Made by a program: the position numbers and the translations under genes. Shown piece by piece: positions 3,720-60,640 of a DNA stretch of 64,000 bases. The DNA is from Armatimonadota bacterium (GTDB lineage: Bacteria > Armatimonadota > UBA5829 > DTLH01): the NCBI GenBank assembly GCA_029551395.1, contig JAKPFN010000089.1:6045-70044 (forward strand). The letters are read 5' to 3'. Below the pieces are notes generated by a model that was not told the origin of the DNA, ran no database searches, and saw only the letters and a list, made by a program, of their open reading frames with translations. Each line of letters starts with the position of its first letter. Positions within the stretch are counted from its first letter, which is position 1.

Positions 3720-3854
3720 GCCAAGTCCAGTTGATGGGAAGGTATGAGTTGGGTTTACTCATCACTCATCACTCGTTACTTCCCCACTTTACACTCGCTT
3801 TGTTCAATTCTGTGTTACAATAGATAGGCAAAATAGCAATTAAGATACAGGCGG

Positions 3855-20308: not shown

Positions 20309-21674
20309 GCGCAGCGAACGCGGTAAGCGGTCCGATACGCCCTATATACATTACAAAAATTATTATCAACCTGCCCATAGTGCTGAGCGAGGGAGTTATA
20401 CCTGTTGTCAGCCCTACAGTGCCCCATGCTGAAATCGTTTCGAACTGTACATTCATAAAACTGGCCCGTCCGTTGGCATCAGCTACATCCACTTCTGTAA
20501 ATGTAAGTATAGTAGTTGCCGCAAGCACAAGAATCGCAGCCAGAATGGTGATTGTCAGCGCCCGGTAGACCTCTTCAGGCGGAATCCGTCTTCCAAATGC
20601 CTCCGTGTCGGTCTTACCTTTGGCAGCGCTGTATACTGCCAGCAGCATCAGCACGAAAGTCGTTGTTTTTATGCCTCCGCCGGTACCTCCAGGAGATGCT
20701 CCGATGAACATCAATATTCCCATTATAAACAGCGTAGTTGCATGTACCTGGCTGATGTTTATGGTGTTATAACCGGAAGTTCTTGCAGTTACTGACTGGA
20801 AGAACGATGCCAGAAGTTTGCCGCCTATAGGCATATTGCCTATCGTATCAGCATTGGTCCACTCGATTCCAAGTATAAGCACTGTTCCGACGACAAGCAG
20901 TGCGGCGGTAGTATACACTACGAGCTTTGCATGGGTCGTCAACCGGCGTTTTTTCTTCCTCTGTAACAATTCTTCGACTACCGGATAGCCCATACCTCCG
21001 ATGATAATTAACCCGGCGATAGTCAGGCTCACAACAGGGTCTTGGGCATAGTGAGTGATTCCTGAGAACTTGCCGTATATTACACCCATCAAATCGAATC
21101 CGGCGTTGCAGAATGCTGAAACAGCGTGGAAAATGCCGTAATAGATAGCCCGGACACCGTTTATGTTCGGGTCAAAGGCGAACCGAGTAATCAGTATCAG
21201 CGCGCCTATGGCTTCGATCATCAAAGCATAGATTGCAGTATTGCGGGTGAGCCGAATCATCCCTGACAGCCGATATTGCCCGTGTAATTCCTGCAGTTGT
21301 ATCCGCTGAGTGACTCCCAACTCTCTACCGAGAAGGATAGCCGCTGCTGTCGCTATAGTCATGTAACCCAATCCGCCCATCTGGATGAGCAGAAGTATTA
21401 CCATCTCTCCGAACATAGTAAATGCTGTCGATGTATCCACTACCACAAGCCCGGTCACGCATACGGCGCTTGTAGCTGTAAACAGGGCATCCAGCGGATG
21501 GACTCCACCGTCTACCCAGGCAATCGGCAGTGACAAAAGCAGCGTGCCGACGGCTATCAATATAGCAAAACTGAGCGCTATAATTGACGCCGGTCTAAGG
21601 GCCGATTTAGGTTTTCTATTGATGCTATCAAGTCTCACAGGTGGTATTTTACCAGAGTAACACAGTTGAGGCAA
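20247..21674 (-). CDS. trkH: TrkH/KtrB family potassium transporter
   Basis: 475 aa, about 10 TM segments, with repeated selectivity-filter-like 'GLGYMTIATA', 'NAGFDLMG', 'GGMGYPVV' and 'SGYNT' motifs characteristic of the TrkH/KtrB superfamily. Confidence 0.85.
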   Translation of the reverse strand: MPQLCYSGKIPPVRLDSINRKPKSALRPASIIALSFAILIAVGTLLLSLPIAWVDGGVHPLDALFTATSAVCVTGLVVVDTSTAFTMFGEMVILLLIQMGGLGYMTIATAAAILLGRELGVTQRIQLQELHGQYRLSGMIRLTRNTAIYALMIEAIGALILITRFAFDPNINGVRAIYYGIFHAVSAFCNAGFDLMGVIYGKFSGITHYAQDPVVSLTIAGLIIIGGMGYPVVEELLQRKKKRRLTTHAKLVVYTTAALLVVGTVLILGIEWTNADTIGNMPIGGKLLASFFQSVTARTSGYNTINISQVHATTLFIMGILMFIGASPGGTGGGIKTTTFVLMLLAVYSAAKGKTDTEAFGRRIPPEEVYRALTITILAAILVLAATTILTFTEVDVADANGRASFMNVQFETISAWGTVGLTTGITPSLSTMGRLIIIFVMYIGRIGPLTAFAALALREKPVRRRLAEEHVVIG

Positions 21675-22119
21675 ACGTTTTAATTAATGGAAGTGACGAG
21701 TTGCGAGTGATGAGTGATGAGGAGGGAAGTATCCCTGCAACAATTGCTGAATTTAATGGTTTTGGTAAAAACGAAATGGGCAGGAATTGAGCGTGATCTG
21801 AGCTTGGGATGGTGGCTTGTGAGCGTGGATTTCATTTCGTTTTGCATGTTTTTTATTGCACACCTTTCTTTTTGGCTCTTATTGTCTTCTGGGAGTCTGT
21901 TCCGGCCTGTTTTTATAGCCGTTTTCTGGAACGAACTCCCCAATTTGAGCACAAAAATGGCTGTTTGAGTTTGTTCCGACGTTTTTTTATTTATCGATTT
22001 TAGCCTGCGTTTCTGGATGTTTCAGAATTTACTGTTCATAATTATAATACAACAACTCGGCCAAAAAGTACAGAAAAAGTGGGGATATTTCTGGGATATT
22101 TATGGGAACGGATGTTTGC

Positions 22120-22250
22120 AAGAGGGTATGAGGTATGAGTGGGCTGTTACGTAGAGATTCTGCGTAATGCTGTTAGCTTGAGATATGGTAGTTGTTCGGG
22201 TTAGATTAATGCAGATTGAGGAATGCGGAATGAATATGAGGGATTGGGGA
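22120..22250 (-). repeat. Copy (reverse orientation) of the dispersed 'CTCATACCTCATACCC / ATTCCGCATTCC' intergenic repeat family
   Basis: The reverse complement of 'GGGTATGAGGTATGAGTGGGCTGTTACG' matches 'ACAGCCACTCATACCTCATACCC' at ~60571, and 'GAATGCGGAATG' matches the ATTCCGCATTC arm. Confidence 0.55.
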
Positions 22251-22300
22251 TAAGTATCCCTGAGATACCCGCCCCGGATGAATATCCGGGGCGATCAGAT
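22247..22300. repeat. Isolated copy of the palindromic 'GGATATCC..GAGATRC..CGCCCCGGATGAATATCCGGGGCGATC' repeat
   Basis: Same ~48-nt unit as the tandem array at 22926..23400. Contains an 8-bp GC-rich hairpin 'CCCCGGAT-GAAT-ATCCGGGG'. Confidence 0.7.
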
Positions 22301-22413
22301 GAAGGGATTCAACGATCTTGAAGGGAATAAATATCCGATGGTACCAATTAATGAAGCAGTAATTGATCAGACAAACTATCGGTTCTGGTCAGGATTCTTC
22401 GATCTGGTAGACA

Positions 22414-22917
22414 TTGAGAGTTGGATTCTGGGGAACATTTTCCGAAACGACGAGGCGCTATATGTTAACTCATAAGGACATTTTGCAGGCTGAGCAAATC
22501 CGCAATAGTCAAGTAAAGCGTATATATGAATCATCCGAGTTATGGTACAGTAACAAACAAAACCAGGAGGCATTGGATGAGTGGAGAAAAGCCTGCAACG
22601 ATTATCATAATACGACATTAGCGATCGATTACCTGTGGTCCGATGAGACTCGAATGAAGATCAAAAGCGGTGACAGAGAAACTATCGATGATGTTTTGCT
22701 GTTTCTTGAAGTCGATCCCTGGTTCTTTCGGTCGGGATATCTGAAAGAATGGCTGATCGATAACCTGATGCATGCACCGCTTACCGAAGAGGATAAAGTC
22801 AGGATACGACAGATTATCATCGCCGTTGCAGGTGGCCGGAACAGAAGGGAGTTCAGGCGGTTTTGTAAGCTGGCAACAAGAGTGACATCCTCCGAATTCG
22901 AAGCCACCATTGCGTAG
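22414..22917 (+). CDS. Hypothetical protein (the true start is probably the internal Met 'MLTHKD' near 22462), preceded by a small overlapping ORF (22299..22475)
   Basis: Only an ORF. No recognisable motifs. Flanked on both sides by copies of the palindromic repeat. Confidence 0.3.
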   Translation: MRVGFWGTFSETTRRYMLTHKDILQAEQIRNSQVKRIYESSELWYSNKQNQEALDEWRKACNDYHNTTLAIDYLWSDETRMKIKSGDRETIDDVLLFLEVDPWFFRSGYLKEWLIDNLMHAPLTEEDKVRIRQIIIAVAGGRNRREFRRFCKLATRVTSSEFEATIA

Positions 22918-22925
22918 TTGGCGGA

Positions 22926-23400
22926 GAAGCAAGACCCAGGCGGAAAGTTTTCATATCTGCTTCGATACCTGAAGGAGCATCCAACTCATTAAAGAGATTA
23001 GGATGGATATCCCTGAGATGTGCGCCCCGGATGAATATCCGGGCCGATCGGAGACAATTTTGTTGAATTACATTGCTTTCCACACGGGGACGGGTTGGAG
23101 GTTGGAGATTGGAGATGGATATCTCCGAGATGCCCGCCCCGGATGGATATCCGGGCCGATCGGGAAGCAAGACCCAGGCGGAAAGTTTTCATATCTGCTT
23201 CGATACCTGAAGGAGCATCCAACTCATTAAAGAGATTAGGATGGATATCCCTGAGATGTGCGCCCCGGATGGATATCCGGGCCGATCGGATTACATCGCT
23301 TTCCGCACGGAGAGGGGTTGGAGGTTGGGGATAGATATCCCCGAGATGCCCGCCCCGGATGGATATCCGGGCCGATCGGAAACCATTAGACACTGAAGCG
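22926..23400. repeat. Tandem array: a ~240-bp unit duplicated twice, with four copies of a ~48-nt palindromic repeat
   Basis: 'GAAGCAAGACCCAGGCGGAAAGTTTTCATATCTGCTTCGATACCTGAAGGAGCATCCAACTCATTAAAGAGATTAGGATGGATATCCCTGAGATGTGCGCCCCGGATG' occurs at 22926 and again at 23166. The core repeat '...GGATATCCNNGAGATGYSCGCCCCGGATGGATATCCGGGCCGATCGG' is present at ~23003, 23113, 23243 and 23340. Confidence 0.85.
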
Positions 23401-23710
23401 AAATTGCATCACACAGATGCGGTTAAACACGTTTCAACAAAGATGCCTGTGCAAATGATGTAACCAGTGTGACAACAGGCTCGTCATATTAACTGAAAGC
23501 ATCTGAATCGGGCCTGAAAGAGATGCTCATTGTGCGGGAAACCTTGATGCCGGTCCATAACTCGCAGACTCAACAGCGTCCGGTCTGCACACGATGATGG
23601 AACGTAATCACTGAATATAAACGGCCTGTTAATGGAACACTTGGCTGGCAGGCACGTCTTAGTAACCTAGAAGGGAATTACTGGCAGCCCGTGCAAAGGA
23701 GGCATCTGAA

Positions 23711-24712
23711 ATGAAACGAAGATCGACAATACTGATCGCAGCCGCCGCAGTGCTCACAATGGCAGTAATGCCGGCGAGTGCGGCATCTCTTGCAACAAAA
23801 GCTCTGAAAGGAGCGGCCATTGGTTATGCGGTCAACCAGTCGGCGGGCACGCTAAACAAGTTCATCAATACAATAACCTTGAATAACGGCGTATCTCACA
23901 AAATGGATACAAAAGTTGTTCCGATCCTGTCTGTTGGCGATAAAGGCTATGTGGGCGGCGCTCAGGTAGCGGGACCAGCCAGCCTGGTCAAGGAAGTCAA
24001 GGCCGTTTTTCAGTATGAACAGAACATCGATCGCGGGCGCTATCGGATCAAAGTGCTCGTACCAAGTTCCAGTATAAATCCACTGCAACTAAAGCGGGTA
24101 GAGAAGGTTGGTGTTACAGCCATAATCGATGTCTCGCTGGCAGGTGGGCTTAAGAAAGAGTATTACAGCGCGAAAGTGGGCGCTGGCGATGCGATTCGAG
24201 CCGGGGCGATAGCCGTCGGTGTAAAAGCAGCCGCAGGACCTATCAACAGTGCCATCAACGCTGTTACGATCAACAAAGGAGTATCCACGGCTGTTGTTCC
24301 GATGGCGAGTGTCGGCGAGAAGGCATATGTCGGCGGAGTCCAGATTTCAGGCTCTGCAAATACCGTCAAGAGTGTTCAGGTGGCATGGATATATGAAGAC
24401 CTGTTCTCCAGCGGTAAGTTCAGAGTGAAGGTAATCGTTCCTTCAAACTCTATAAACCCGCTCAAGATCAAGAGAGTCGATGGAGTTGGTATAACGGCGA
24501 TCATCGATACAAGCATCGCTGATCAGCAGGAATACAATTACGACAAAAAACGCGCCAGCAATACCTATAAACCAAAGGACAATCGTTACTATAACGACAA
24601 AGACCGTCACGACAACGGCAAGCATAAAGGCTGGTATATAGGCGAGCATAAGGGCTGGGACAAGCAGAAAGACAAAGATAAAGACAAGAACAAGAACAAG
24701 AAAAAGAAGTAA
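23711..24712 (+). CDS. Secreted protein with an internal ~150-aa tandem domain duplication and a Lys/Asp-rich low-complexity C-terminal tail
   Basis: Signal peptide 'ILIAAAAVLTMAVMPASAAS'. The two halves align ('GVSHKMDTKVVPILSVGDKGYVGGAQVAG...YRIKVLVPSSSINPLQLKRVEKVGVTAIIDVS' and 'GVSTAVVPMASVGEKAYVGGVQISG...FRVKVIVPSNSINPLKIKRVDGVGITAIIDTS'). Tail 'KDKDKDKNKNKKKK'. Confidence 0.55.
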   Translation: MKRRSTILIAAAAVLTMAVMPASAASLATKALKGAAIGYAVNQSAGTLNKFINTITLNNGVSHKMDTKVVPILSVGDKGYVGGAQVAGPASLVKEVKAVFQYEQNIDRGRYRIKVLVPSSSINPLQLKRVEKVGVTAIIDVSLAGGLKKEYYSAKVGAGDAIRAGAIAVGVKAAAGPINSAINAVTINKGVSTAVVPMASVGEKAYVGGVQISGSANTVKSVQVAWIYEDLFSSGKFRVKVIVPSNSINPLKIKRVDGVGITAIIDTSIADQQEYNYDKKRASNTYKPKDNRYYNDKDRHDNGKHKGWYIGEHKGWDKQKDKDKDKNKNKKKK

Positions 24713-25795: not shown

Positions 25796-26002
25796 GAAAT
25801 GATTGGCGGTTTATATAAAACACCATGTAGACAAATATATAGAAGGCTTAGGCTGAGAATAAGCAGTGTTTTATCTCGTCATTCATCACTCGCAACTCTC
25901 CATCAATTTGACTCAGCATCTTTCAGGGAGTATAATCCAATCAGTACAGGGAGTTATTCTCAGGATTATTGACTTGTTCAGCCGCCATACCCTCGGCGGC
26001 TG

Positions 26003-28605: not shown

Positions 28606-28966
28606 AAAAGGCCATTAAGTGCGGAACCTTTCAAGTGCGGAATCTTTCAAGTGCGGAATGCGGAATACGGAGTGCGGAATGAAGGGAGAGTTACGAGTGA
28701 TGAGGGATGAGCGGCTGTTAAGTAGCGGCTGGTTCGTAGATTTATCAGCTTGAGCTGTAGTGGTTGTTTGGGATCAAGAGATCCCTCGGTTGCTATTTCG
28801 GAGATGGATTGCAAATCCATCCCCAGTTAGACCCATCCTCATCTGGAGTTACTTGTCCGGGGGGAAATGTAAATTCCCCCGAGCTTGTTTCTCGACTCGT
28901 CACTTATCACTCGCGACTCATCACTTTCCCCTAATTCCGCACTCCGCACTCCACATTCCGCACTTG
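28606..28966. repeat. Composite intergenic element with ~90-bp imperfect terminal inverted repeats and a palindrome-rich centre
   Basis: Left arm: 4x 'AAGTGCGGAAT'-like units plus 'GTTACGAGTGATGAGGGATGAGC'. Right arm is the reverse complement: 'GCTCGTCACTTATCACTCGCGACTCATCAC...ATTCCGCACTCCGCACTCCACATTCCGCAC'. The centre carries 'GATGGATTGCAAATCCATC' and 'GGGGGAAATGTAAATTCCCCC' hairpins. Abuts the stop codon of the 28967..30472 gene. Confidence 0.8.
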
Positions 28967-40749: not shown

Positions 40750-40945
40750 TATTCATCCGCCTATCTCTCGGGAGGGATTTGCCGTCTCTCGGGAGGAATT
40801 TGCCGTCTCTCGGGAGGAATTTGCAATTCCTCCCGGACATATTGCTGAGGGATCTGTGATCCCGGATGATTAACAAAAATACCAAGGAACGGGATTGCAA
40901 ATCCCTCTTTTGCTCTTCCGGGCTAAATTGCAAATTTAGCCCGAG
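40750..40945. repeat. Left arm of a ~200-bp imperfect inverted repeat bounding the 41-47.8 kb operon
   Basis: 'CCTCCCGGACATATTGCTGAGGGATCTGTGATCCCGGATGATTAAC(A)AAAATACCAAGGAACGGGATTGCAAATCCCT...CCGGGCTAAATTGCAAATTTAGCCCGAG' is the reverse complement of 47849..~48000. Contains 3 tandem 'TCTCGGGAGG(G/A)ATTTGC' units and the palindromes 'GGGATTGCAAATCCC' and 'CCGGGCTAAATTGCAAATTTAGCCCGG'. Confidence 0.85.
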
Positions 40946-41232: not shown

Positions 41233-42261
41233 ATGGGGCTGAGCCGGATGGCAGACTCAGGTCTTAGACCTCAAACAACCTGCAAAGACACCGCAAAGCA
41301 TTTGTTTTGCACCAACCAGCCATATTCGACATTCCTGGCAGCGCAGCAAGGAGTAGAAGAAATGGTCTTAAATGTAGAGCCTTCGTGCAAGACATGCACC
41401 TGCCACGAGGAAGTGGATTTATCGCATGTCGAGAAGATTCTGGCCAAATACAACAATGACCGAGCCGAATTACTCTCGATTCTTGAGGAGGTTCAGGCCG
41501 ATTATGGCTATCTCCCGCAGAATGCACTTCGAATGGTGGCTGAAAGAACAGGCTCCTCGATGGTCGACGTTTTCGGCGTCGCCACTTTCTACCGCGCATT
41601 CAACCTCAAACCCCGAGGCAAACACTGCATCTCTGTGTGCATGGGAACAGCCTGTCATGTTAAAGGTGCGCCGAATGTAGTAAAAGAGTTCGAGCGTCAG
41701 CTTGGAATCTCTGTTGGCGAAACTACCCCAGACAACGAATTTACGCTTGAAACAGTCAATTGCCTTGGAGCAAGCGCACTGGGGCCAATCGTAATGGTTG
41801 ACGGGCATTATTTCTCCCATGTCACTCCCGCAAAAGTAAAGTGGCTCCTGTCAATGGTTCGTGCAGGACTTGATAAGGTCGATGTAAAGACTGATAGCCG
41901 GATAATCCACCTGGATGTGCTGTGTCCTCACTGCAATCAAAGTCTGATGGATTCTGTGCATCCAATAGACGGCTGCCCATCCATCCATACGACCATAACC
42001 TTTAACGGGGTTAGCGGTCATGCAAGATTGTCATCTCTTTATGGAAGTTACTCCATTCAATCAGAGCCTGATGCACCTGTGGGAACTACAGTTGACTTTT
42101 TCTGCCCATCGTGCAATAAAAAACTTACGACGACATCCAGATGTCCCGAATGTGGTGAGTTGATGGCATTGATGAGAGTAAGTGGGGGCGGTGTAGTACA
42201 AATCTGCACGCAGCGTGGATGTAAAGGGCATATACTAGACCTGAGTGAAATCGATATCTAA
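41233..42261 (+). CDS. NuoE/HoxE/HydC-like thioredoxin-fold [2Fe-2S] subunit with a C-terminal zinc-ribbon-like extension
   Basis: 'LSILEEVQADYGYLPQNALRMVAERTGSSMVDVFGVATFYRAFNLKPRGKHCISVCMGTACHVKGA...VNCLGASALGPIVMVDG' is the NuoE-family 2Fe-2S module. The C-terminal ~130 aa carry CxxC pairs ('CPHCNQ', 'CPSCNK', 'CPECGE'). The likely true start is ATG ~41363, with RBS 'AAGGAG' and Met 'MVLNVEPS'. Confidence 0.75.
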   Translation: MGLSRMADSGLRPQTTCKDTAKHLFCTNQPYSTFLAAQQGVEEMVLNVEPSCKTCTCHEEVDLSHVEKILAKYNNDRAELLSILEEVQADYGYLPQNALRMVAERTGSSMVDVFGVATFYRAFNLKPRGKHCISVCMGTACHVKGAPNVVKEFERQLGISVGETTPDNEFTLETVNCLGASALGPIVMVDGHYFSHVTPAKVKWLLSMVRAGLDKVDVKTDSRIIHLDVLCPHCNQSLMDSVHPIDGCPSIHTTITFNGVSGHARLSSLYGSYSIQSEPDAPVGTTVDFFCPSCNKKLTTTSRCPECGELMALMRVSGGGVVQICTQRGCKGHILDLSEIDI

Positions 42262-42314
42262 CAGCCACGGTGAAATAGTCAAGCTTTATTGGGCATAAGA
42301 AGGAATGGATAAGA

Positions 42315-45300
42315 TTGATGGAAAGACTGACTTCCGTTGAGGAGTTTCGGACACTGCAGAGTCGCGTCATTGCAGCTTTAGACCCTACAGTTCCTACCAT
42401 AGTTATCCCGGCCGGCACTTGCGGACAGGCTAGCGGTGCGAGTGATCTGATCAGAGTCGCAAAACGTTATCTCTTGGAAAAACGTTTAACTGATAAGGTT
42501 CGCTTGCGCATCACTGGATGTCATGGGTTCTGCGAAATGGAACCTTCCGTGCTTATCGAACCGCAAAAAACATTCTACCCTCGGGTAAGCATGAGAGATG
42601 TCTCCCGGATCATAGATGCCGCTGTAGAGGGAAAGGTGATCGAAGAACTCCTTTTTGTAGATCCAACGACCGGGGAACGGATTCGCAAGCAAAGTGATAT
42701 CCCATTTTTCAAAAAACAGTTCCGTTTGTTGATGGAAAGAAATGAGCGGGTAGACCCAAGACGGATTTTGGACTATATAGAGTCTGGTGGATATACAGCG
42801 CTGGCAGAGGTACTTGCAGAACGTGATCCTGAATGGGTTGTGTCCGAGGTCAAAGCGTCTGGACTGAGAGGCCGCGGCGGAGCTGGATTTCCTACGGGGA
42901 TTAAATGGGAAATGCTGGCAAAGCAGCCGAGCGATAAAGGCAAATTCATCGTGTGTAATGCTGATGAAGGCGACCCAGGAGCCTACATGGACCGCAGTAT
43001 CCTCGAAGGCAACCCACACAGCATCATTGAAGGGATGATCATTGGAGCTTTTGCGACTGGTGCGACTGATGGGATCATATATGTGTGCTGCGAGTTTCCT
43101 CTGGCTATTAAACATATTGGTATGGCATTGGAACAGGCGTATGAACTCGGGCTGCTGGGTGAAAACATTTTAGGCGCCGGTTTCTCCTTTAATATGACTA
43201 TGGTTAAAGGCGCTGGGGCATTCGTCTGCGGCGAAGAAACCGCCATGATCCACTCTATCGAAGGTTATACCGGCGAGCCAAGGCAAAGACCTCCATTTCC
43301 CATCCAAAAAGGAATAAACGGCAAGCCTACTGCCATTAATAATGTCGAGACATGGGCCAATATCCCGATTATCATCAGGGATGGCGCAAAAGCTTATGCC
43401 AGTATCGGCACTCCAAACAATTCCGGTACAAAAATCTTTAGCTTGGTCGGCAAGGTCAAACACACCGGGCTTGTTGAGATGCCTATGGGTACCACAATCG
43501 GAGAGATTGTATATAACGTAGGCGGTGGAGCTGTTGGCAACAGCGAAATCAAGGCTGTGCAGACTGGCGGGCCTTCAGGTGGATGTATTCCAGCAAGCAG
43601 CTTCGATCTTCCTGTAGATTATGATACGCTGGCTAAGTTCGGTTCGATTATGGGGTCTGGCGGCATGATCGTCATGGATGAAGATACGTGTATGGTCGAT
43701 GTTGCCAAATACTTCATGAACTTCCTGAAGAATGAGTCCTGCGGCAAGTGCTTTACCTGCCGTAAAGGCACTCAGCGGATGTATGAACTGCTGGAAGATA
43801 TTACTCTGGGAGCAGGTACTCCTGAAAGTATAGCTCTTTTGGAAGAACTTGCGTATGTAGTCAAAGACACGACGATGTGCGGTCTAGGGCAGTCGGCATC
43901 GAATTCCGTTTTGAGTTCGCTTAGGCATTTCCGCAATGAATATGAACAGCATGTAGTTGAAGGAAAATGCCCCTCTTATGTATGCAAGGATTTGGTAGGG
44001 GTGCCTTGTCAGACTGCCTGTCCGGTAGGGACTGAAATCTGGCGGTATATTGCGCAGATAGAGCACAAAAATTATGTAGATGCGTATAAAACAATACGTG
44101 AGTCTAACCCATTTCCATCGGTATGTGCTCGAGTGTGCAATCATCCGTGTGAAGACAGATGCAAATCCGGCACAAGCGGCGGGCAGCCAATCAATATCAG
44201 GGCTTTGACGAGGTTCGTTACCGATAATGTCGACCCAGGCGTTTATAAACCGGTAATTGAGCCACAGTTTGGAGATAAACATCCTCAGGTTGCTGTTGTT
44301 GGCGGAGGGCCAGCCGGACTGACAGCCGCGCATTATCTTTCTTTGAAAGGCTGCAAGGTTACTATCTTCGAGCAGGAATCTGAGCTTGGAGGAATGCTTC
44401 TTTCCGTAATACCGGAATACAAGCTGCCAGGAGAGGTTCTAAAATCGGAGATTGCCTCTTTGCTTAACGATAACATCACGCTCAAATACGGCACAGTGCT
44501 TGGGCGAGACATCACTGTTGATGGCTTGTTGAAAGACAACTTCGATGCTGTGTTCCTGAGTTTCGGTGCTCATAATAGTTCTGGGCTGCAATCGGACATT
44601 AAGGATATTCAAGGCGTTTATCCATTGCTGGATTATGTTAAGTCGGTAAATCTGAGAGGCGAAAACCTTGCTATTGGTAAGGTTGGCATCATTGGAGGAA
44701 GCGTTTCTGCTATTGATGCTGCCCGGACAGCCATCAGGTCGGCTAAAGCTGAGAGCGTAACGGTCTTTTATCAAGGGACGCGCGAAGATATGCTGGCAGC
44801 GAAAGATGAAATCGATGCTGCCATCGAAGAAGGTGTCAGTATTGAAACTCTGGTGTCTGTTGAAGAGATCCTCTCTCAAGACGGCAAGTTGGCAGGGGCC
44901 AGGATAGTTAAAAGCAGACTTGGAGACTTCGATTCGGATGGCCGAAGAAGACTTAAGCCGATTGCAGGGAGTGAACAAAAGGTAGATTTGGACACTCTCA
45001 TCATAACCGCATCGGAATCTCCAGATGTGGAATGTTTGCTGAGTAATAGTCATCTAAGCATCGATCTCAATGCTGACGGGACTATAAAAGTGGATGTTGG
45101 AACACTTGCTGCCAGTATTCCCGGTGTCTTTGCTGGAGGTGATATAACCGGCCAGGTTAGCGTCATCGATGCAATCGCAGCAGGAAAAAGAGCTGCTGAG
45201 TCTATTAGCTGTTACCTGCAAGGTAAAGTATATAAACCATCAACTGGTATCCAACTGCCGCAGGTTTTTATAGAACCAAACAGATCTGAAGAAGATGCAA

Positions 45301-45467
45301 GCGGACAAAGCGCCCGGGTCAAGCTTCCAAAGATCGATGTCAGTGAGCGACGTGGAAACTTCAAGGAAGTCGAGATTTCGCTTACACCGGAAAACGCTCT
45401 AAAAGAAGCCGGAAGATGCCTGAGGTGTGATCTGGACTTCTTCAAGTGCAAAGAGTGCCAGGAGTAA
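42315..45467 (+). CDS. Fusion protein: NuoF-like NADH-binding FMN/[4Fe-4S] flavoprotein module + GltD/NfnB-like [4Fe-4S]x2 FAD/NAD(P)H oxidoreductase module
   Basis: N-terminal half: 'GLRGRGGAGFPTGIKWE' (NuoF NADH/FMN site), 'ESCGKCFTCRKGTQRM' (NuoF 4Fe-4S), SLBB-like region. C-terminal half: 'CPSYVCKDLVGVPCQTACPVGTEIWRY...VCARVCNHPCEDRCK' (GltD/DPD-type N-terminal Fe-S domain), 'VAVVGGGPAGLTAAHYL' (FAD), 'VGIIGGSVSAIDAARTA' (NAD(P)H), 'GVFAGGDI'. 1050 aa. The start is more likely ATG 42318. Confidence 0.8.
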   Translation: MMERLTSVEEFRTLQSRVIAALDPTVPTIVIPAGTCGQASGASDLIRVAKRYLLEKRLTDKVRLRITGCHGFCEMEPSVLIEPQKTFYPRVSMRDVSRIIDAAVEGKVIEELLFVDPTTGERIRKQSDIPFFKKQFRLLMERNERVDPRRILDYIESGGYTALAEVLAERDPEWVVSEVKASGLRGRGGAGFPTGIKWEMLAKQPSDKGKFIVCNADEGDPGAYMDRSILEGNPHSIIEGMIIGAFATGATDGIIYVCCEFPLAIKHIGMALEQAYELGLLGENILGAGFSFNMTMVKGAGAFVCGEETAMIHSIEGYTGEPRQRPPFPIQKGINGKPTAINNVETWANIPIIIRDGAKAYASIGTPNNSGTKIFSLVGKVKHTGLVEMPMGTTIGEIVYNVGGGAVGNSEIKAVQTGGPSGGCIPASSFDLPVDYDTLAKFGSIMGSGGMIVMDEDTCMVDVAKYFMNFLKNESCGKCFTCRKGTQRMYELLEDITLGAGTPESIALLEELAYVVKDTTMCGLGQSASNSVLSSLRHFRNEYEQHVVEGKCPSYVCKDLVGVPCQTACPVGTEIWRYIAQIEHKNYVDAYKTIRESNPFPSVCARVCNHPCEDRCKSGTSGGQPINIRALTRFVTDNVDPGVYKPVIEPQFGDKHPQVAVVGGGPAGLTAAHYLSLKGCKVTIFEQESELGGMLLSVIPEYKLPGEVLKSEIASLLNDNITLKYGTVLGRDITVDGLLKDNFDAVFLSFGAHNSSGLQSDIKDIQGVYPLLDYVKSVNLRGENLAIGKVGIIGGSVSAIDAARTAIRSAKAESVTVFYQGTREDMLAAKDEIDAAIEEGVSIETLVSVEEILSQDGKLAGARIVKSRLGDFDSDGRRRLKPIAGSEQKVDLDTLIITASESPDVECLLSNSHLSIDLNADGTIKVDVGTLAASIPGVFAGGDITGQVSVIDAIAAGKRAAESISCYLQGKVYKPSTGIQLPQVFIEPNRSEEDASGQSARVKLPKIDVSERRGNFKEVEISLTPENALKEAGRCLRCDLDFFKCKECQE

Positions 45468-46153
45468 TGAGTATGGTCAACTTTGTTTTAAACGGTTTGC
45501 CTGTTAGTGTTGAGAAAGGATCGACAATACTGGAAGCCGCGCAGTTTTATGGTTTTCCTATTCCAACGTTATGTCACATGGAAGGACTTTCGCCGTACGG
45601 TGCGTGCCGTCTTTGCGTAGTAGAGATAGGCGAAGGACCAAGGGCCAAGCTTGTTACATCCTGTACTTATCCGGTTGAGGAAGGCCTGAAGGTGCGAACT
45701 GCCTCAGAGAGAGTGATTAAAGCACGGAGGATGGTCATAGAGCTTCTTTTGGCTTCGTGCCCGCAGTCTAAAACAATACAAGACCTTGCCTCCGCGCATG
45801 GAGTGAGACAGCAGCGCTTCAGGCAGGAATATGAAGACTGCATACTGTGCGGACGCTGCATACGGATGTGCAAAGAACAGATGATGGCAAAAGCTATAGG
45901 TTTCAGGGGCCGTGGCGAAGGAAGGTCCATCGGTACTCCCTTTGATATGAAGAGTGAACAGTGCAGGCAGTGTGGCGGCTGCATCTATGTATGCCCTGCC
46001 TGCCAGTTGAGATGCACTTACACCGAGCCGGAGAAAGCGGTGTGCGGTGGATGCGCGAATCTGACACCTCCTTGTGTCGAGAAAGATTCGTTTGATGATA
46101 TGATGTGTTATATGAACCCATGTGTAGCTTGTGAAATCAAGAAGGACCTGTAA
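45446..46153 (+). CDS. Ferredoxin subunit: 2Fe-2S (NuoG/HydA N-terminal type) + two [4Fe-4S] motifs
   Basis: 'VNFVLNGLPVSVEKGSTILEAAQFYGFPIPTLCH...GACRLCVVEI' (Fer2_4-like 2Fe-2S), 'CILCGRCIRMC' and 'CRQCGGCIYVCPAC' (4Fe-4S). The start is probably the internal Met 'MSMVNF' overlapping the upstream stop. Confidence 0.75.
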   Translation: MQRVPGVMSMVNFVLNGLPVSVEKGSTILEAAQFYGFPIPTLCHMEGLSPYGACRLCVVEIGEGPRAKLVTSCTYPVEEGLKVRTASERVIKARRMVIELLLASCPQSKTIQDLASAHGVRQQRFRQEYEDCILCGRCIRMCKEQMMAKAIGFRGRGEGRSIGTPFDMKSEQCRQCGGCIYVCPACQLRCTYTEPEKAVCGGCANLTPPCVEKDSFDDMMCYMNPCVACEIKKDL

Positions 46154-47756
46154 GGAGTCAAATGATATGGCGACAGCTTTCTCGAGGGTGAATGCTTCAG
46201 CAGCGACCCTTACCAAGAATCGAACTGAAGGATCAGTATCTTCCATCTCAGGTATGTGCGTGACCTGCGTAGATGGCTGCATCGGTATGTGCGAGATTGG
46301 AAAGTCCGCATACAGGGGCCATGAGGTTATTTATCCGCAGCCGTTTGGTGTTATTACGACTGCTGCTGAAAAGACCTACCCTGTTGACTACTCGCATTTT
46401 AACATAATGGGCACCGCAGTCGGGGCTGTTGGTATTGAGGCCGATAGTGACAAGGCTATATTCCCGAACGTTGACCTTTCGGTCCGATTCGGTCATGACG
46501 GCGGCATTAAGTTCAAACTGCCAATGATTATCCCTGGAATTGGCTCAACGAATATCGCCAAGAATAACTGGGAAGGATTAGCGATCGGTTCGGCGCTTGC
46601 AGGAACAGGTCTGACTATCGGTGAGAATGTTGTAGGTATGGATCCGCAGTCCGTAATCAAAAACGGACGTGTGGTTGATACCGTAGACCTGAAGCGCAGG
46701 GTCAAACTCTTCAAAGACTACCAGCGGGATGGCTGGGGAGAGATAGTTGTTCAGGCTAATGTAGAGGATACAAGGCTTGGAGGCCAGGAATACGCTATAC
46801 AGGAGCTCGGCGTTAGAGTTGTTGAGATGAAATGGGGCCAGGGCGCAAAGGACATCGGCGGCGAGGTCAAAATAAACGACCTGAAGAAGGCCCAACTGCT
46901 TTACGAGCGCGGTTATGTAGTCATACCGAATCCGACTGACCCGAATGTGATTAAAGCATTCGAGCAAGGCGCTTTCAAGGAGTTCGAGCGGCACTCGAGA
47001 GTCGGAATGATCTCTGAAGAGAGCTTTGCAAAGAGGGTGGAGGAACTGCGTAAGGCTGGTGCGAAGTATATCTTCCTGAAGACCGGTGCTTACAGACCTG
47101 CAGACCTTGCCAGAGCTATTGCATGGGCATCCAAATATAAGCTTGACCTGCTGACAGTTGATGGCGCAGGCGGTGGAACCGGTATGAGTCCGTGGAGGAT
47201 GATGAACGAGTGGGGAGTCCCGCCGGTTGAGCTTCATTCATTGCTTTATCAGTTTGCCAAGCGGCTTGCGGACAAGGGGAGGTATCTCCCGGCTTTTGCT
47301 GTTGCAGGTGGATTCACCTTCGAAGACCAGATATTCAAAGGTCTGGCAATGGGCGCTCCATTCGTGAAGCTGGTTGGAATGGCCCGAGGTCCTATTGCCT
47401 CTGCAATGGTAGGAAAGACCATCGGCAGAAGTATGGATGACGGTCAGCTTCCGGTGTATGTGGAGCGATTCGGCACGACCAGGGATGAGATTTTCGTCAC
47501 GGCAGCACATCTCAGGCAGGAACTTGGAGATGATGAGTTCGAAAAGCTGCCTACTGGTGCTCTTGGGCTTTACACCTATTATGAAAGGCTTGCCCAGGGA
47601 CTCCGCCAGTTGATGTGTGGAAGCCGGAAGTTCGCACTGGAGCACATCAGCCGAAACGATATTGCTGCTCTCACCCCGGAGGCATCAAAGGTCAGTGGTA
47701 TCCAGTACATAATGCACGTTGACGAGGACGAGGTAGACCAAATCCTCGACGCGTAG
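46131..47756 (+). CDS. Glutamate synthase large-subunit FMN-binding central domain ('GltB domain 2', PF01645-like) as a stand-alone subunit
   Basis: 541 aa. N-terminal Cys cluster 'CVTCVDGCIGMCE'. TIM-barrel FMN region 'KFKLPMIIPGIGSTN...GENVVGMDPQ', 'LLTVDGAGGGTGMSPWRMMNEWGVP', 'FAVAGGFTFEDQIFKGLAMGAPFVKLVGMARG'. No glutamine amidotransferase domain in the cluster. Confidence 0.7.
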   Translation: MKSRRTCKESNDMATAFSRVNASAATLTKNRTEGSVSSISGMCVTCVDGCIGMCEIGKSAYRGHEVIYPQPFGVITTAAEKTYPVDYSHFNIMGTAVGAVGIEADSDKAIFPNVDLSVRFGHDGGIKFKLPMIIPGIGSTNIAKNNWEGLAIGSALAGTGLTIGENVVGMDPQSVIKNGRVVDTVDLKRRVKLFKDYQRDGWGEIVVQANVEDTRLGGQEYAIQELGVRVVEMKWGQGAKDIGGEVKINDLKKAQLLYERGYVVIPNPTDPNVIKAFEQGAFKEFERHSRVGMISEESFAKRVEELRKAGAKYIFLKTGAYRPADLARAIAWASKYKLDLLTVDGAGGGTGMSPWRMMNEWGVPPVELHSLLYQFAKRLADKGRYLPAFAVAGGFTFEDQIFKGLAMGAPFVKLVGMARGPIASAMVGKTIGRSMDDGQLPVYVERFGTTRDEIFVTAAHLRQELGDDEFEKLPTGALGLYTYYERLAQGLRQLMCGSRKFALEHISRNDIAALTPEASKVSGIQYIMHVDEDEVDQILDA

Positions 47757-47783: not shown

Positions 47784-47816
47784 GGAGGCAGTTCAAAAAG
47801 GATTGCCTCCCTTTTA
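47784..47816 (+). terminator. Rho-independent terminator of the four-gene operon
   Basis: 'GGGAGGCAG'-TTCAAAAAGGAT-'TGCCTCCC' followed by 'TTTTAATTA', ~30 nt after the stop. Confidence 0.7.
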
Positions 47817-47848
47817 ATTATCAATGTGCAGTAATTTGAAGAATAACC

Positions 47849-48060
47849 TCGGGCTAAATTTGCAAATTTAGCCCGGAATAGTGGATTAGGGATTTGCAAT
47901 CCCGTTCCTTGGTATTTTAGTTAATCATCCGGGATCACAGATCCCTCAGCAATATGTCCGGGAGGGATTGCAAATCCCTCCCGAGAGATGAATCCCTCCC
48001 GAGAGTGTCCCTCCCGAGATAAGGTTCGTCTGGGAGGCTAGGAATCCCCTCACGAGATAG
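47849..48060. repeat. Right arm of the ~200-bp inverted repeat (reverse complement of 40750..40945)
   Basis: 'CTCGGGCTAAATTTGCAAATTTAGCCCGG...GGGATTTGCAATCCCGTTCCTTGGTATTTTAGTTAATCATCCGGGATCACAGATCCCTCAGCAATATGTCCGGGAGG' plus degenerate 'CCCTCCCGAGAG' tandem units. Confidence 0.85.
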
Positions 48061-55228: not shown

Positions 55229-55229
55229 A

Positions 55230-55262
55230 AGTTACGAGTGGCGAGTGATGAGTAACGAGAAA
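55230..55262 (+). repeat. Copy of the 'GTTACGAGTG(G/A)CGAGTGATGAGTAACGAG' dispersed repeat
   Basis: 'AGTTACGAGTGGCGAGTGATGAGTAACGAG' matches copies at ~21691, 28690 and 60503, and in reverse at 3758 and 25875. Confidence 0.7.
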
Positions 55263-60464: not shown

Positions 60465-60502
60465 GTATAACAGCGCCCCGAAACCAGTGTCAAACGCAGG
60501 GA

Positions 60503-60640
60503 AGTTACGAGTGATGAGTGATGAGTAACGAGTAGGGGACTTGGCTCAAAATAACAAAGTAACGAACCGTTTCTACTTAACAGCCACTCATACCTCATAC
60601 CCAAGATTCCGCATTCCGCACTCCGAACTCCGCATTTAAA
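60503..60640 (+). repeat. Copy of the dispersed intergenic repeat element (GTTACGAGTGATGAGTGATGAGTAACGAG ... CCACTCATACCTCATACCC ... ATTCCGCATTCCGCACTCCGAACTCCGC)
   Basis: Direct sequence match to arms of the 28606..28966 element and to the reverse-oriented copy at 22120..22250. Confidence 0.75.

Follow-up and report, generated by a model that had tools for sequence, protein, structure and literature searches.

We analyze a 64,000-nucleotide stretch of an Armatimonadota bacterium genome (contig JAKPFN010000089.1, positions 6,045 to 70,044), hereafter the window, in which one 1.15-kb spacer (22244-23379) carries five copies of a two-hairpin unit of ~55 nt, all on the plus strand. The window is ordinary chromosome, with ktrAB-like genes and genes for an Na/H exchanger, DAHP synthase, AddAB, MreB, EPSP synthase, and RF-1, among others. 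Pfam annotation of essentially all open reading frames (ORFs) of ≥130 aa reveals no integrase, transposase, reverse transcriptase, or Cas protein in the 64 kb. The window has no tRNA gene, and Rfam gives zero hits at the gathering threshold in the window and, on 21600-23750, nothing of relevance even at E<=5. Downstream of the array is a secreted-protein gene at 23711. Between unit 1 (U1) and unit 2 (U2) it encloses a 58-aa orphan ORF and a truncated member of a 176-aa protein family (Table 1).

The core CGCCCCGGATGRATATCCGGGSCGATC has five exact (0-mismatch) plus-strand matches in the window, at 22270, 23023, 23135, 23261, and 23351, against a chance expectation of 0.00 matches in shuffled sequence. 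A repeat search recovers the same five copies as one family, spaced 753, 112, 126, and 90 nt apart. One repeat pair is 127 nt at 99% identity (22926-23052 and 23164-23290) and the second is 43 nt at 88% identity (23067-23109 and 23290-23332), giving a higher-order duplication with periods of 238 and 223 nt. A preliminary description of the locus had reported both the five copies and a duplication of ~240 bp, correctly in each case; its unit length of 48 nt is revised here to ~55 nt.

Table 1 Features of the array and of the DNA adjoining it.
Feature	Coordinates	Strand	Description
Upstream intergenic DNA	21691-22243	+	Pieces of a second, dispersed repeat; runs straight into U1
Unit 1 (U1)	22244-22298	+	Hairpin A TTGGGGAT-aagt-ATCCCTGA at 22244-22263, spacer, hairpin B, tail ATCAG
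U1 hairpin B	22270-22293	+	CGCCCCGGAT-gaat-ATCCGGGGCG; perfect 10-bp stem
58-aa orphan ORF	22299-22475	+	No family
Truncated member of 176-aa family	22462-22992	+	ORF 22462-22917 ends at TAG
Higher-order repeat copy 1	22926-23163	+	238 nt: gene tail, U2, 57-nt spacer, U3
Unit 2 (U2)	22998-23051	+	Degenerate hairpin A TTAGGAT-ggat-ATCCCTGA; hairpin B with C.C mismatch; tail ATCGG
Unit 3 (U3)	23109-23163	+	Hairpin A TTGGAGAT-ggat-ATCTCCGA; hairpin B with C.C mismatch
Higher-order repeat copy 2	23164-23386	+	223 nt: gene tail copy 23164-23230, U4, 35-nt spacer, U5
Unit 4 (U4)	23236-23289	+	Copy of U2; sole difference in the hairpin B loop, GGAT vs GAAT
Unit 5 (U5)	23325-23379	+	Hairpin A TTGGGGAT-agat-ATCCCCGA; hairpin B with C.C mismatch

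The unit is composed of a variable hairpin A, a spacer of ~10 nt (GAGATRYSCG), a nearly invariant hairpin B, and a tail (ATC(R)G). Hairpin B has the consensus CGCCCCGGAT-GRAT-ATCCGGGSCG. Its 10-bp stem is perfect in U1 and carries a C.C mismatch in U2-U5. The preliminary description had recognized this stem-loop but sized it as an 8-bp CCCGGAT/ATCCGGG hairpin; it had also listed GGATATCC as a palindrome, a sequence that is indeed present but belongs to the second hairpin (A) rather than standing alone. Both hairpins have a GGAT-N4-ATCC core, and the center-to-center distance between them is constant (28 bp) in the window units. Hairpin A is degenerate in U2 and U4, and in U3 it carries a compensated pair of changes (G>A and C>T) relative to U1 and U5. 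U1 ends 1 nt upstream of the ATG of the 58-aa ORF, U2 starts 5 nt past the ancestral stop codon of the 176-aa family gene, and GGTTGGA-type heptamers precede U3.

Folding as RNA gives two hairpins per unit. The fold of U1 is stable (-31.2 kcal/mol, z-score -4.1), and U2-U5, taken as whole units, fold no better than shuffled sequence (z-scores -0.2 to -1.4). When each unit is folded as DNA with 25-nt flanks, on both strands, it forms two independent short stem-loops and never one long hairpin; the flanks are unpaired. The pairing is conserved. In hairpin B, double-sided changes that keep the pairing occur in three of nine pairs among 15 units. In hairpin A, seven distinct inner stems across genomes are 97% paired, compared with 73% after shuffling of the 3' arms, and only one of 2000 shuffles reaches the observed value. 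Compensatory changes keep both stems paired across five genomes, and T.G wobbles sit on the unit-sense strand. Together, the compensatory changes in both hairpins and the unit-sense wobbles favor a folded single strand (DNA or RNA) as the selected feature, rather than a duplex sequence that is recognized. All 16 units examined are intergenic.

The five units of the window are not equally related. The C.C mismatch, which is the derived state, and a GATCGG tail are common to U2-U5, and U1 has the perfect stem and a GATCAG tail. Two subtypes exist among U2-U5, one made up of U2 and U4, the other of U3 and U5. At the start of copy 2 of the higher-order repeat, the last 22 codons of the enclosed gene are repeated without a change. 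Since U2-U5 share the derived mismatch and the duplication also copies these codons, the history of the array is one of nested local duplication, not of serial independent insertions. The first 127 nt of copy 2 are 99% identical to copy 1 and the spacer part is 88% identical, an unequal divergence that implies either more than one event or gene conversion. The spacers of the two copies also differ by a 15-nt indel that starts exactly at the 3' edge of the unit (after GATCGG) and by a 7-nt heptamer indel. The left end of the 238-nt duplication lies within the gene, at a CGG microhomology, and its right end coincides with the 3' edge of U3.

Two other origins of a duplicated gene 3' end are rejected. 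A diversity-generating retroelement, judged from anatomy alone, does not fit, as no reverse transcriptase is present in the window and the copies differ at one of 127 positions, in a hairpin loop. An att duplication by an integrative element is at best a remnant, as only 111 nt separate the two gene-tail copies.

The duplication is not the assembly artefact that the preliminary description had allowed for, because an independent assembly has the same array. This contig (L041), from the Joint Genome Institute and another sample, is 99.85% identical to the window over 15 kb, differs from it by single-nucleotide polymorphisms and by a 16-nt variable number tandem repeat (VNTR) at 28617, and carries an identical five-unit array. 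The preliminary description had proposed a comparison among strains for copy-number variation, and the assemblies do show it: a further assembly (L053; 99.9% identical) has four units against the five of the window and L041. In L053, U5 and the 90 nt before it are missing and the junction is clean from unit to unit, although the data are of low coverage and a collapsed assembly is possible. Three further assemblies break exactly at the edge of the array.

Of the ORFs enclosed by the array, the one at 22299 has no match but itself among 1.84 billion representatives, save weak ones to an immunoglobulin-like repeat, and is probably a fragment or not a real gene. The ORF at 22462 has 151 codons and ends at an in-frame TAG (22915-22917), which is followed by 24 in-frame codons (LAEKQDPGGKFSYLLRYLKEHPTH) and by the ancestral stop codon of the 176-aa family copy, a TAA at 22990-22992. 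Because these 24 codons align with the conserved C-terminus of the family, the window copy is a nonsense-truncated gene. The small hypothetical gene of the preliminary description is this truncated family copy. Two more ORFs, of 131 aa (22998-23393, minus strand) and 75 aa (23003-23230, plus strand), run through the units and are artefacts of repeated DNA; the 75-aa ORF is annotated as a gene in the public record of L041.

The 176-aa family occurs in Armatimonadota and metagenomes, and its homologues (P0002-P0072) share the invariant motif FLEVDPWFFRSGYLKE. Its AlphaFold model is all-helical (predicted local distance difference test score, 95.8) and has no significant match in the PDB; the family has no match in Pfam or PADLOC. 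The homologues occur singly, in four chromosomal contexts that are unrelated to one another, tight against different neighbors and without the unit. In two cases (L045 and L047) they adjoin genes for sigma-70/extracytoplasmic function sigma factors. The intact homologues in four contexts without the unit rule out that it is an inherited 3' element of the gene.

To find relatives of the unit, we scan one genome per species with a 19-nt core of hairpin B. The scan returns 40 stretches. Stem-loops unrelated to the unit make up most of them, including many true terminators that have T-runs; by our own estimate, chance matches to the 19-mer would number on the order of ten. The full layout (hairpin A, spacer, hairpin B, and NATC) is the criterion for a unit. 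The other metagenome-assembled genomes (MAGs) with units have one to six each. Solitary units, both antisense and both in housekeeping spacers, lie 14 nt past an isocitrate/isopropylmalate dehydrogenase gene in an Armatimonadota MAG (L002) and between two minus-strand genes in L052. Small same-strand arrays are found in L003 (three units) and at two loci of one MAG, L039 and L040 (four and two units, respectively). The two-hairpin element appears to be a distinct family, REP/BIME-like in kind (repetitive extragenic palindrome and bacterial interspersed mosaic element, respectively), that is common to a few Armatimonadota-like genomes and unclassified MAGs.

The array of L039 surrounds small accessory modules. 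There, a BrnT/BrnA pair sits between units a and b, which are of one subtype, and a PIN/RHH pair sits between 113-nt direct repeats with 96% identity. These flanking repeats (1774-1886 and 2691-2803) are an extended three-hairpin unit of ~113 nt. In L040, three tandem 68-nt repeats (345-548; 100%, 100%, and 90% identity) abut the extended unit. The closest homologue of the PIN toxin (87% identity), from another sample (L054), has a diverged unit after its stop codon, in the same position and relative orientation as in L039. Hairpin B of this unit is altered by compensated substitutions (CGCCCCTGA...TCAGGGGCG), and the sequence past the unit differs between L054 and L039. PIN homologues at ~60% identity are without units.

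In every array seen, the units share one orientation. Their orientation relative to the flanking genes is mixed: antisense for L002, L052, L039 units c and d, and L054, and sense for the window units and L039 units a and b. Several units lie 5-15 nt from stop codons (window U2, L039 units b and c, L002, and L054). No recombinase is encoded near the units in the 8-kb loci L002, L003, L039, and L040, and Rfam gives no relevant hit at E<=1 on these loci or on L052.

Two further elements were noted in the genomes scanned. A rod-like element of ~170 nt alternates with units in L040 (60-232, minus strand), L039 (134-300 and 1503-1690), and L003 (185-335, minus strand). Its fold is a single long imperfect hairpin of 49 pairs, of which 17 are compensated among four copies, and it ends in a T-run; it has no Rfam match, is absent from the window, and is either a miniature inverted-repeat transposable element (MITE) or an undescribed structured RNA. 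In a Planctomycetota MAG, JAFLCO01 (L014, L019, L020, L026, L028, L033, and L036), a 20-nt stem-loop CCCCGGATGAATATCCGGGG with the conserved 5' flank GTTCAATAG occurs on at least eight contigs, often as an inverted pair with a second hairpin, GCCCCAGGTGAATACCTGGGGC. These doublets are truly inverted and resemble the paired REP elements called REPINs, in another phylum, and are built on the same stem sequence as the unit.

The unit is low in copy number. With the core as an exact-match query, no unit is found elsewhere in the 64-kb window or in a further 9.3 kb of L059, a contig of a 98.8%-identical relative. A metagenome DNA scan yields the array contig and the L052 contig only, in an incomplete collection from which the known contig L041 is missed. 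A scan of viral contigs yields zero matches, as does a synthetic six-frame peptide query aimed at other arrays through their spurious ORFs. All copy-number scans used exact-match cores and incomplete collections. Within that scope the repeat is not ubiquitous; the preliminary description had named ubiquity as the outcome that would make it a generic REP.

Classical REPs are high-copy (hundreds), often form inverted pairs, have a 5' GTAG flank, and are linked to a REP-associated tyrosine transposase (RAYT; Y1/HUH). Like them, the unit is a short extragenic imperfect palindrome that forms a stem-loop, with a conserved single-stranded flank at the foot of the stem, often just past a stop codon. 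It is likewise grouped with other small spacer repeats and prone to recombination and copy-number change. Unlike them, it is bipartite (two different hairpins), low-copy (one locus in ~73 kb, besides the few units per MAG given above), and in one orientation, with no inverted pair in any unit array, and its conserved flank is 3' (NATC). No RAYT is encoded in the window DNA or the array loci examined. Pneumococcal BOX elements and, in cyanobacteria, small dispersed repeats and heptameric short tandemly repeated repetitive (STRR) sequences are also modular hairpin units mixed with short repeats in nested intergenic arrangements. Heptamer runs adjoin units in the window and in L052, and are also present in L047 and L055. 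However, the unit has no known sequence relationship to these elements, it does not consist of head-to-tail modules of one element, and terminal inverted repeats and target-site duplications are not identified for it. The literature searched contains nothing on the core sequence or on REPs of Armatimonadota, and the two-hairpin extragenic element is previously undescribed.

Clusters of attC sites lacking an integron integrase (CALINs) have, by definition, no integrase adjacent. The array resembles them in several respects. Same-strand repeats lie <4 kb apart around small, often orphan ORFs, structure is kept more than sequence, toxin-antitoxin pairs occur in either orientation (L039 being the example for the unit), and an adjacent integrase is not required. 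At least two same-strand sites within 4 kb define such a cluster (PMC4889954), and the window has five plus-strand units within 1.15 kb. Toxin-antitoxin cassettes occur in sedentary chromosomal integrons (PMC4889954, PMC13108822). The likeness does not extend to the sites. Boxes of the attC type (RYYYAAC ... GTTRRRY) bracket only U2 (22979 and 23062) and not U1, U3, U4, or U5, and the number of boxes in the 1.3-kb region is modest, three to four of each against ~1.3 expected by chance. The DNA folds lack the single long imperfect hairpin, L boxes, unpaired central spacer, and extrahelical bases of attC. Integron attC is therefore ruled out by box patterns and DNA folding. No IntI (PF00589-type) is encoded in the window or near the arrays of L002, L003, L039, and L040, an absence that is not decisive alone, since CALINs lack an adjacent integrase. 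The inter-unit segments differ as well: in the window they consist of one pseudogene, a gene tail of 65 nt, and fillers of 35-57 nt, and the array grew by local duplication.

Two RNA elements are also rejected. A scan for intrinsic terminators calls none of the units, the tails being GATCGG or GATCAG without a T-run; the host genome has canonical terminators (for example, at 47787-47820), and the missing T-run together with the mixed orientation rules out this identity. The CUGAGAU within the spacer does not fit the CUGANGA of a hammerhead or small-ribozyme core.

With moderate confidence, we interpret the array as a lineage-restricted, bipartite extragenic palindrome of the REP/BIME type that has been amplified locally into a cluster by unequal recombination or slippage; its spacer would be prone to recombination and houses an accessory gene in decay. 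An ancestral unit would have lain beside the small accessory gene, and successive local duplications, through unequal crossing-over or through replication slippage at the hairpins, would have built the array and carried along a piece of the gene. Recombination between units would still alter their number today. The selected feature would be the hairpins on single-stranded DNA (or RNA). The elements may spread, or may once have spread, by means of a trans-acting hairpin-recognizing enzyme encoded elsewhere. Their main effect may be to turn the spacer into a recombination-prone hotspot that collects accessory genes, toxin-antitoxin pairs, and gene fragments. Among the roles listed in the preliminary description, a REP-like element and a recombination hotspot are those best supported, by the extragenic stem-loops, the five versus four units, and the nested duplications; an mRNA stabilizer or small-RNA locus agrees poorly with the mixed orientation, the lack of a T-run terminator, and the lack of an Rfam match.

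Several observations weigh against this interpretation. The low copy number, the single orientation, and the absence of a RAYT from the DNA examined are unlike classical REPs. A 27-nt core of hairpin B is identical between genomes of clearly different composition, which suggests that it is under tighter constraint, or has been mobile more recently, than expected of a junk repeat in decay. The junctions of the duplication and of the indel coincide with the 3' edge of the unit (after GATCGG), and the 87%-identical PIN toxin of L054 keeps a diverged unit in place while the flanks beyond it differ; both would also fit site-specific cleavage or a cassette boundary. Any function of the units, and any enzyme acting on them, is putative.

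The same junctions underlie an alternative that we consider unlikely, namely that the units are recombination or cleavage sites of an uncharacterized hairpin-specific system (integron-like or HUH/Y1), which would act on folded single strands, with the enzyme elsewhere and the inter-unit segments as cassettes open to capture, duplication, and loss. Divergence, the 15-nt indel, and the duplication junction all begin right after the GATCGG tail, one unit period is cleanly lost in L053, same-strand arrays surround small modules (BrnT/BrnA and PIN/RHH in L039), and the PIN module of L054 keeps its unit with different sequence beyond. A hairpin with a conserved 3' tail is the layout recognized by HUH nucleases. 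However, no integrase, Y1 transposase, or recombinase is encoded in the 64-kb window or the 8-kb loci of the other arrays, and the attC features are absent. The shared derived mutation of U2-U5 points to local duplication rather than independent captures, one of the would-be cassettes is a mere 65-nt gene tail and others are non-coding spacers of 35-57 nt, and the left end of the 238-nt duplication is within the gene rather than at a unit. Units that stand alone lie in housekeeping spacers (L002 and L052), and the ~60%-identity PIN homologues and the 176-aa homologues are without units. A little more doubtful still is the broader proposal that the unit is the recognition or cleavage site of an undescribed hairpin-specific recombination system of Armatimonadota and neighboring lineages. 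Such a system would follow an integron-like logic with another site architecture and have its enzyme (HUH/Y1 or other) elsewhere, with toxin-antitoxin pairs, orphan genes, and MITE-like rods as the small cassettes that it assembles and rearranges at hotspots in the chromosome.

A role at the RNA level, as stabilizing or processing stem-loops, U-tract-independent terminators, translational occluders, or a small-RNA locus, is about as improbable as the hairpin-specific system. The stable fold of U1, the compensatory changes with sense-strand G.U-type wobbles, the units that lie 5-15 nt from stop codons, and the position of U1 1 nt before an ATG speak for such a role, but the mixed orientation relative to flanking genes speaks against it, as does the lack of a T-run in a genome that uses canonical terminators. 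There is no Rfam match even at E<=5, U2-U5 as whole units are no better folded than shuffles, and five copies behind a pseudogene are hard to reconcile with regulation. We give still less weight to duplex-DNA sites for a dimeric protein that would bind the GGAT-N4-ATCC palindromes, two per unit and 28 bp apart. Such a protein could regulate the downstream secreted-protein gene, be of the nucleoid or partition type, or be a serine recombinase at a res-like site. The core shared by both hairpins, its constant spacing, and the position of the array upstream of the gene at 23711 agree with such sites. Yet stems change on both sides within one array (GGGGAT/ATCCCC vs GGAGAT/ATCTCC; in L039, GGAT/ATCC vs GGAC/GTCC), and seven different hairpin A stems across genomes are expected for a constraint on structure, not for the sequence specificity of one protein. 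In addition, T.G wobbles would be mismatched half-sites, and solitary units lie in unrelated spacers with no conserved neighbor gene. CRISPR (clustered regularly interspaced short palindromic repeat) arrays have regular 23-50-nt direct repeats and unique spacers of similar length, with cas genes or a leader nearby, although orphan arrays may lack these. The array does contain hairpin-bearing direct repeats with non-repeat sequence between them, but a degenerate or orphan CRISPR is almost inconceivable here: the repeat is bipartite and ~55 nt long, its spacings are irregular, the place of "spacers" is taken by a gene, a gene tail, and duplicated filler, the 64 kb contain no cas gene, and viral contigs give zero hits. 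The preliminary description had itself judged this likeness superficial.

Armatimonadota are genetically almost unstudied, and no repeat family is described for them in the literature searched. The covarying two-hairpin module offers a handle on the gain and loss of accessory genes in this phylum, as the units mark spacers with toxin-antitoxin pairs, orphan genes, and gene fragments, and their copy number shifts between strains. Should an enzyme act on the hairpins, the recombination system would be a new one, specific for single strands; should the unit be no more than a palindromic repeat in decay, the finding is ordinary. In practice, the units break short-read assemblies, as in the three contigs that end at the array, and yield spurious ORF calls.

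The intergenic DNA upstream of U1 contains pieces of another repeat, with GAGTGAT heptamers at 21691-21721 and, at 22125-22243, GGTATGA heptamers with a "GCTGTTACGTAG...AGCTTGAG..." block. This repeat recurs at 28617-28770, 28880-28966 (minus strand), and 60499-60640 (minus strand). More widely, a dispersed intergenic repeat of AAGTTACGAGTGATGAGTGATGAG heptamers, sometimes with a "GCTGTTAAGTAG...AGCTTGAG" block, is present at 3755-3785 (minus), 21691-21721, 25875-25898 (minus), 28684-28718, 55229-55259, and 60499-60640 (minus). Similar heptamer runs adjoin hairpins in other genomes (L047, L052, L055, and L024) and resemble STRR-type repeats of cyanobacteria. In the spacer that separates the DAHP synthase gene from the next one lies a MITE-like element (28617-28966), in which 64-nt inverted arms (28648-28711 and 28903-28966) of TGCGGAA and GAGTGAT heptamers flank three hairpins. 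The 16-nt tandem repeat at its left end (28617-28659) is the VNTR mentioned above, with one copy fewer in L041.

Inverted repeats of 124 nt with 93% complementarity (40806-40929 and 47865-47988) lie on either side of a ~6.9-kb operon encoding a NuoE/NuoF-GltD-like oxidoreductase (41233-47756). Both repeats consist of small stem-loops in series (GGGAGGAATTTGCAATTCCTCCC, GGGATCTGTGATCCC, GGGATTGCAAATCCC, and GGGCTAAATTGCAAATTTAGCCC), and their outer edges carry 21-nt and 18-nt tandem repeats (40764-40824 and 47973-48019). The pair could permit inversion of the operon, or could represent two insertions of one multi-hairpin element.

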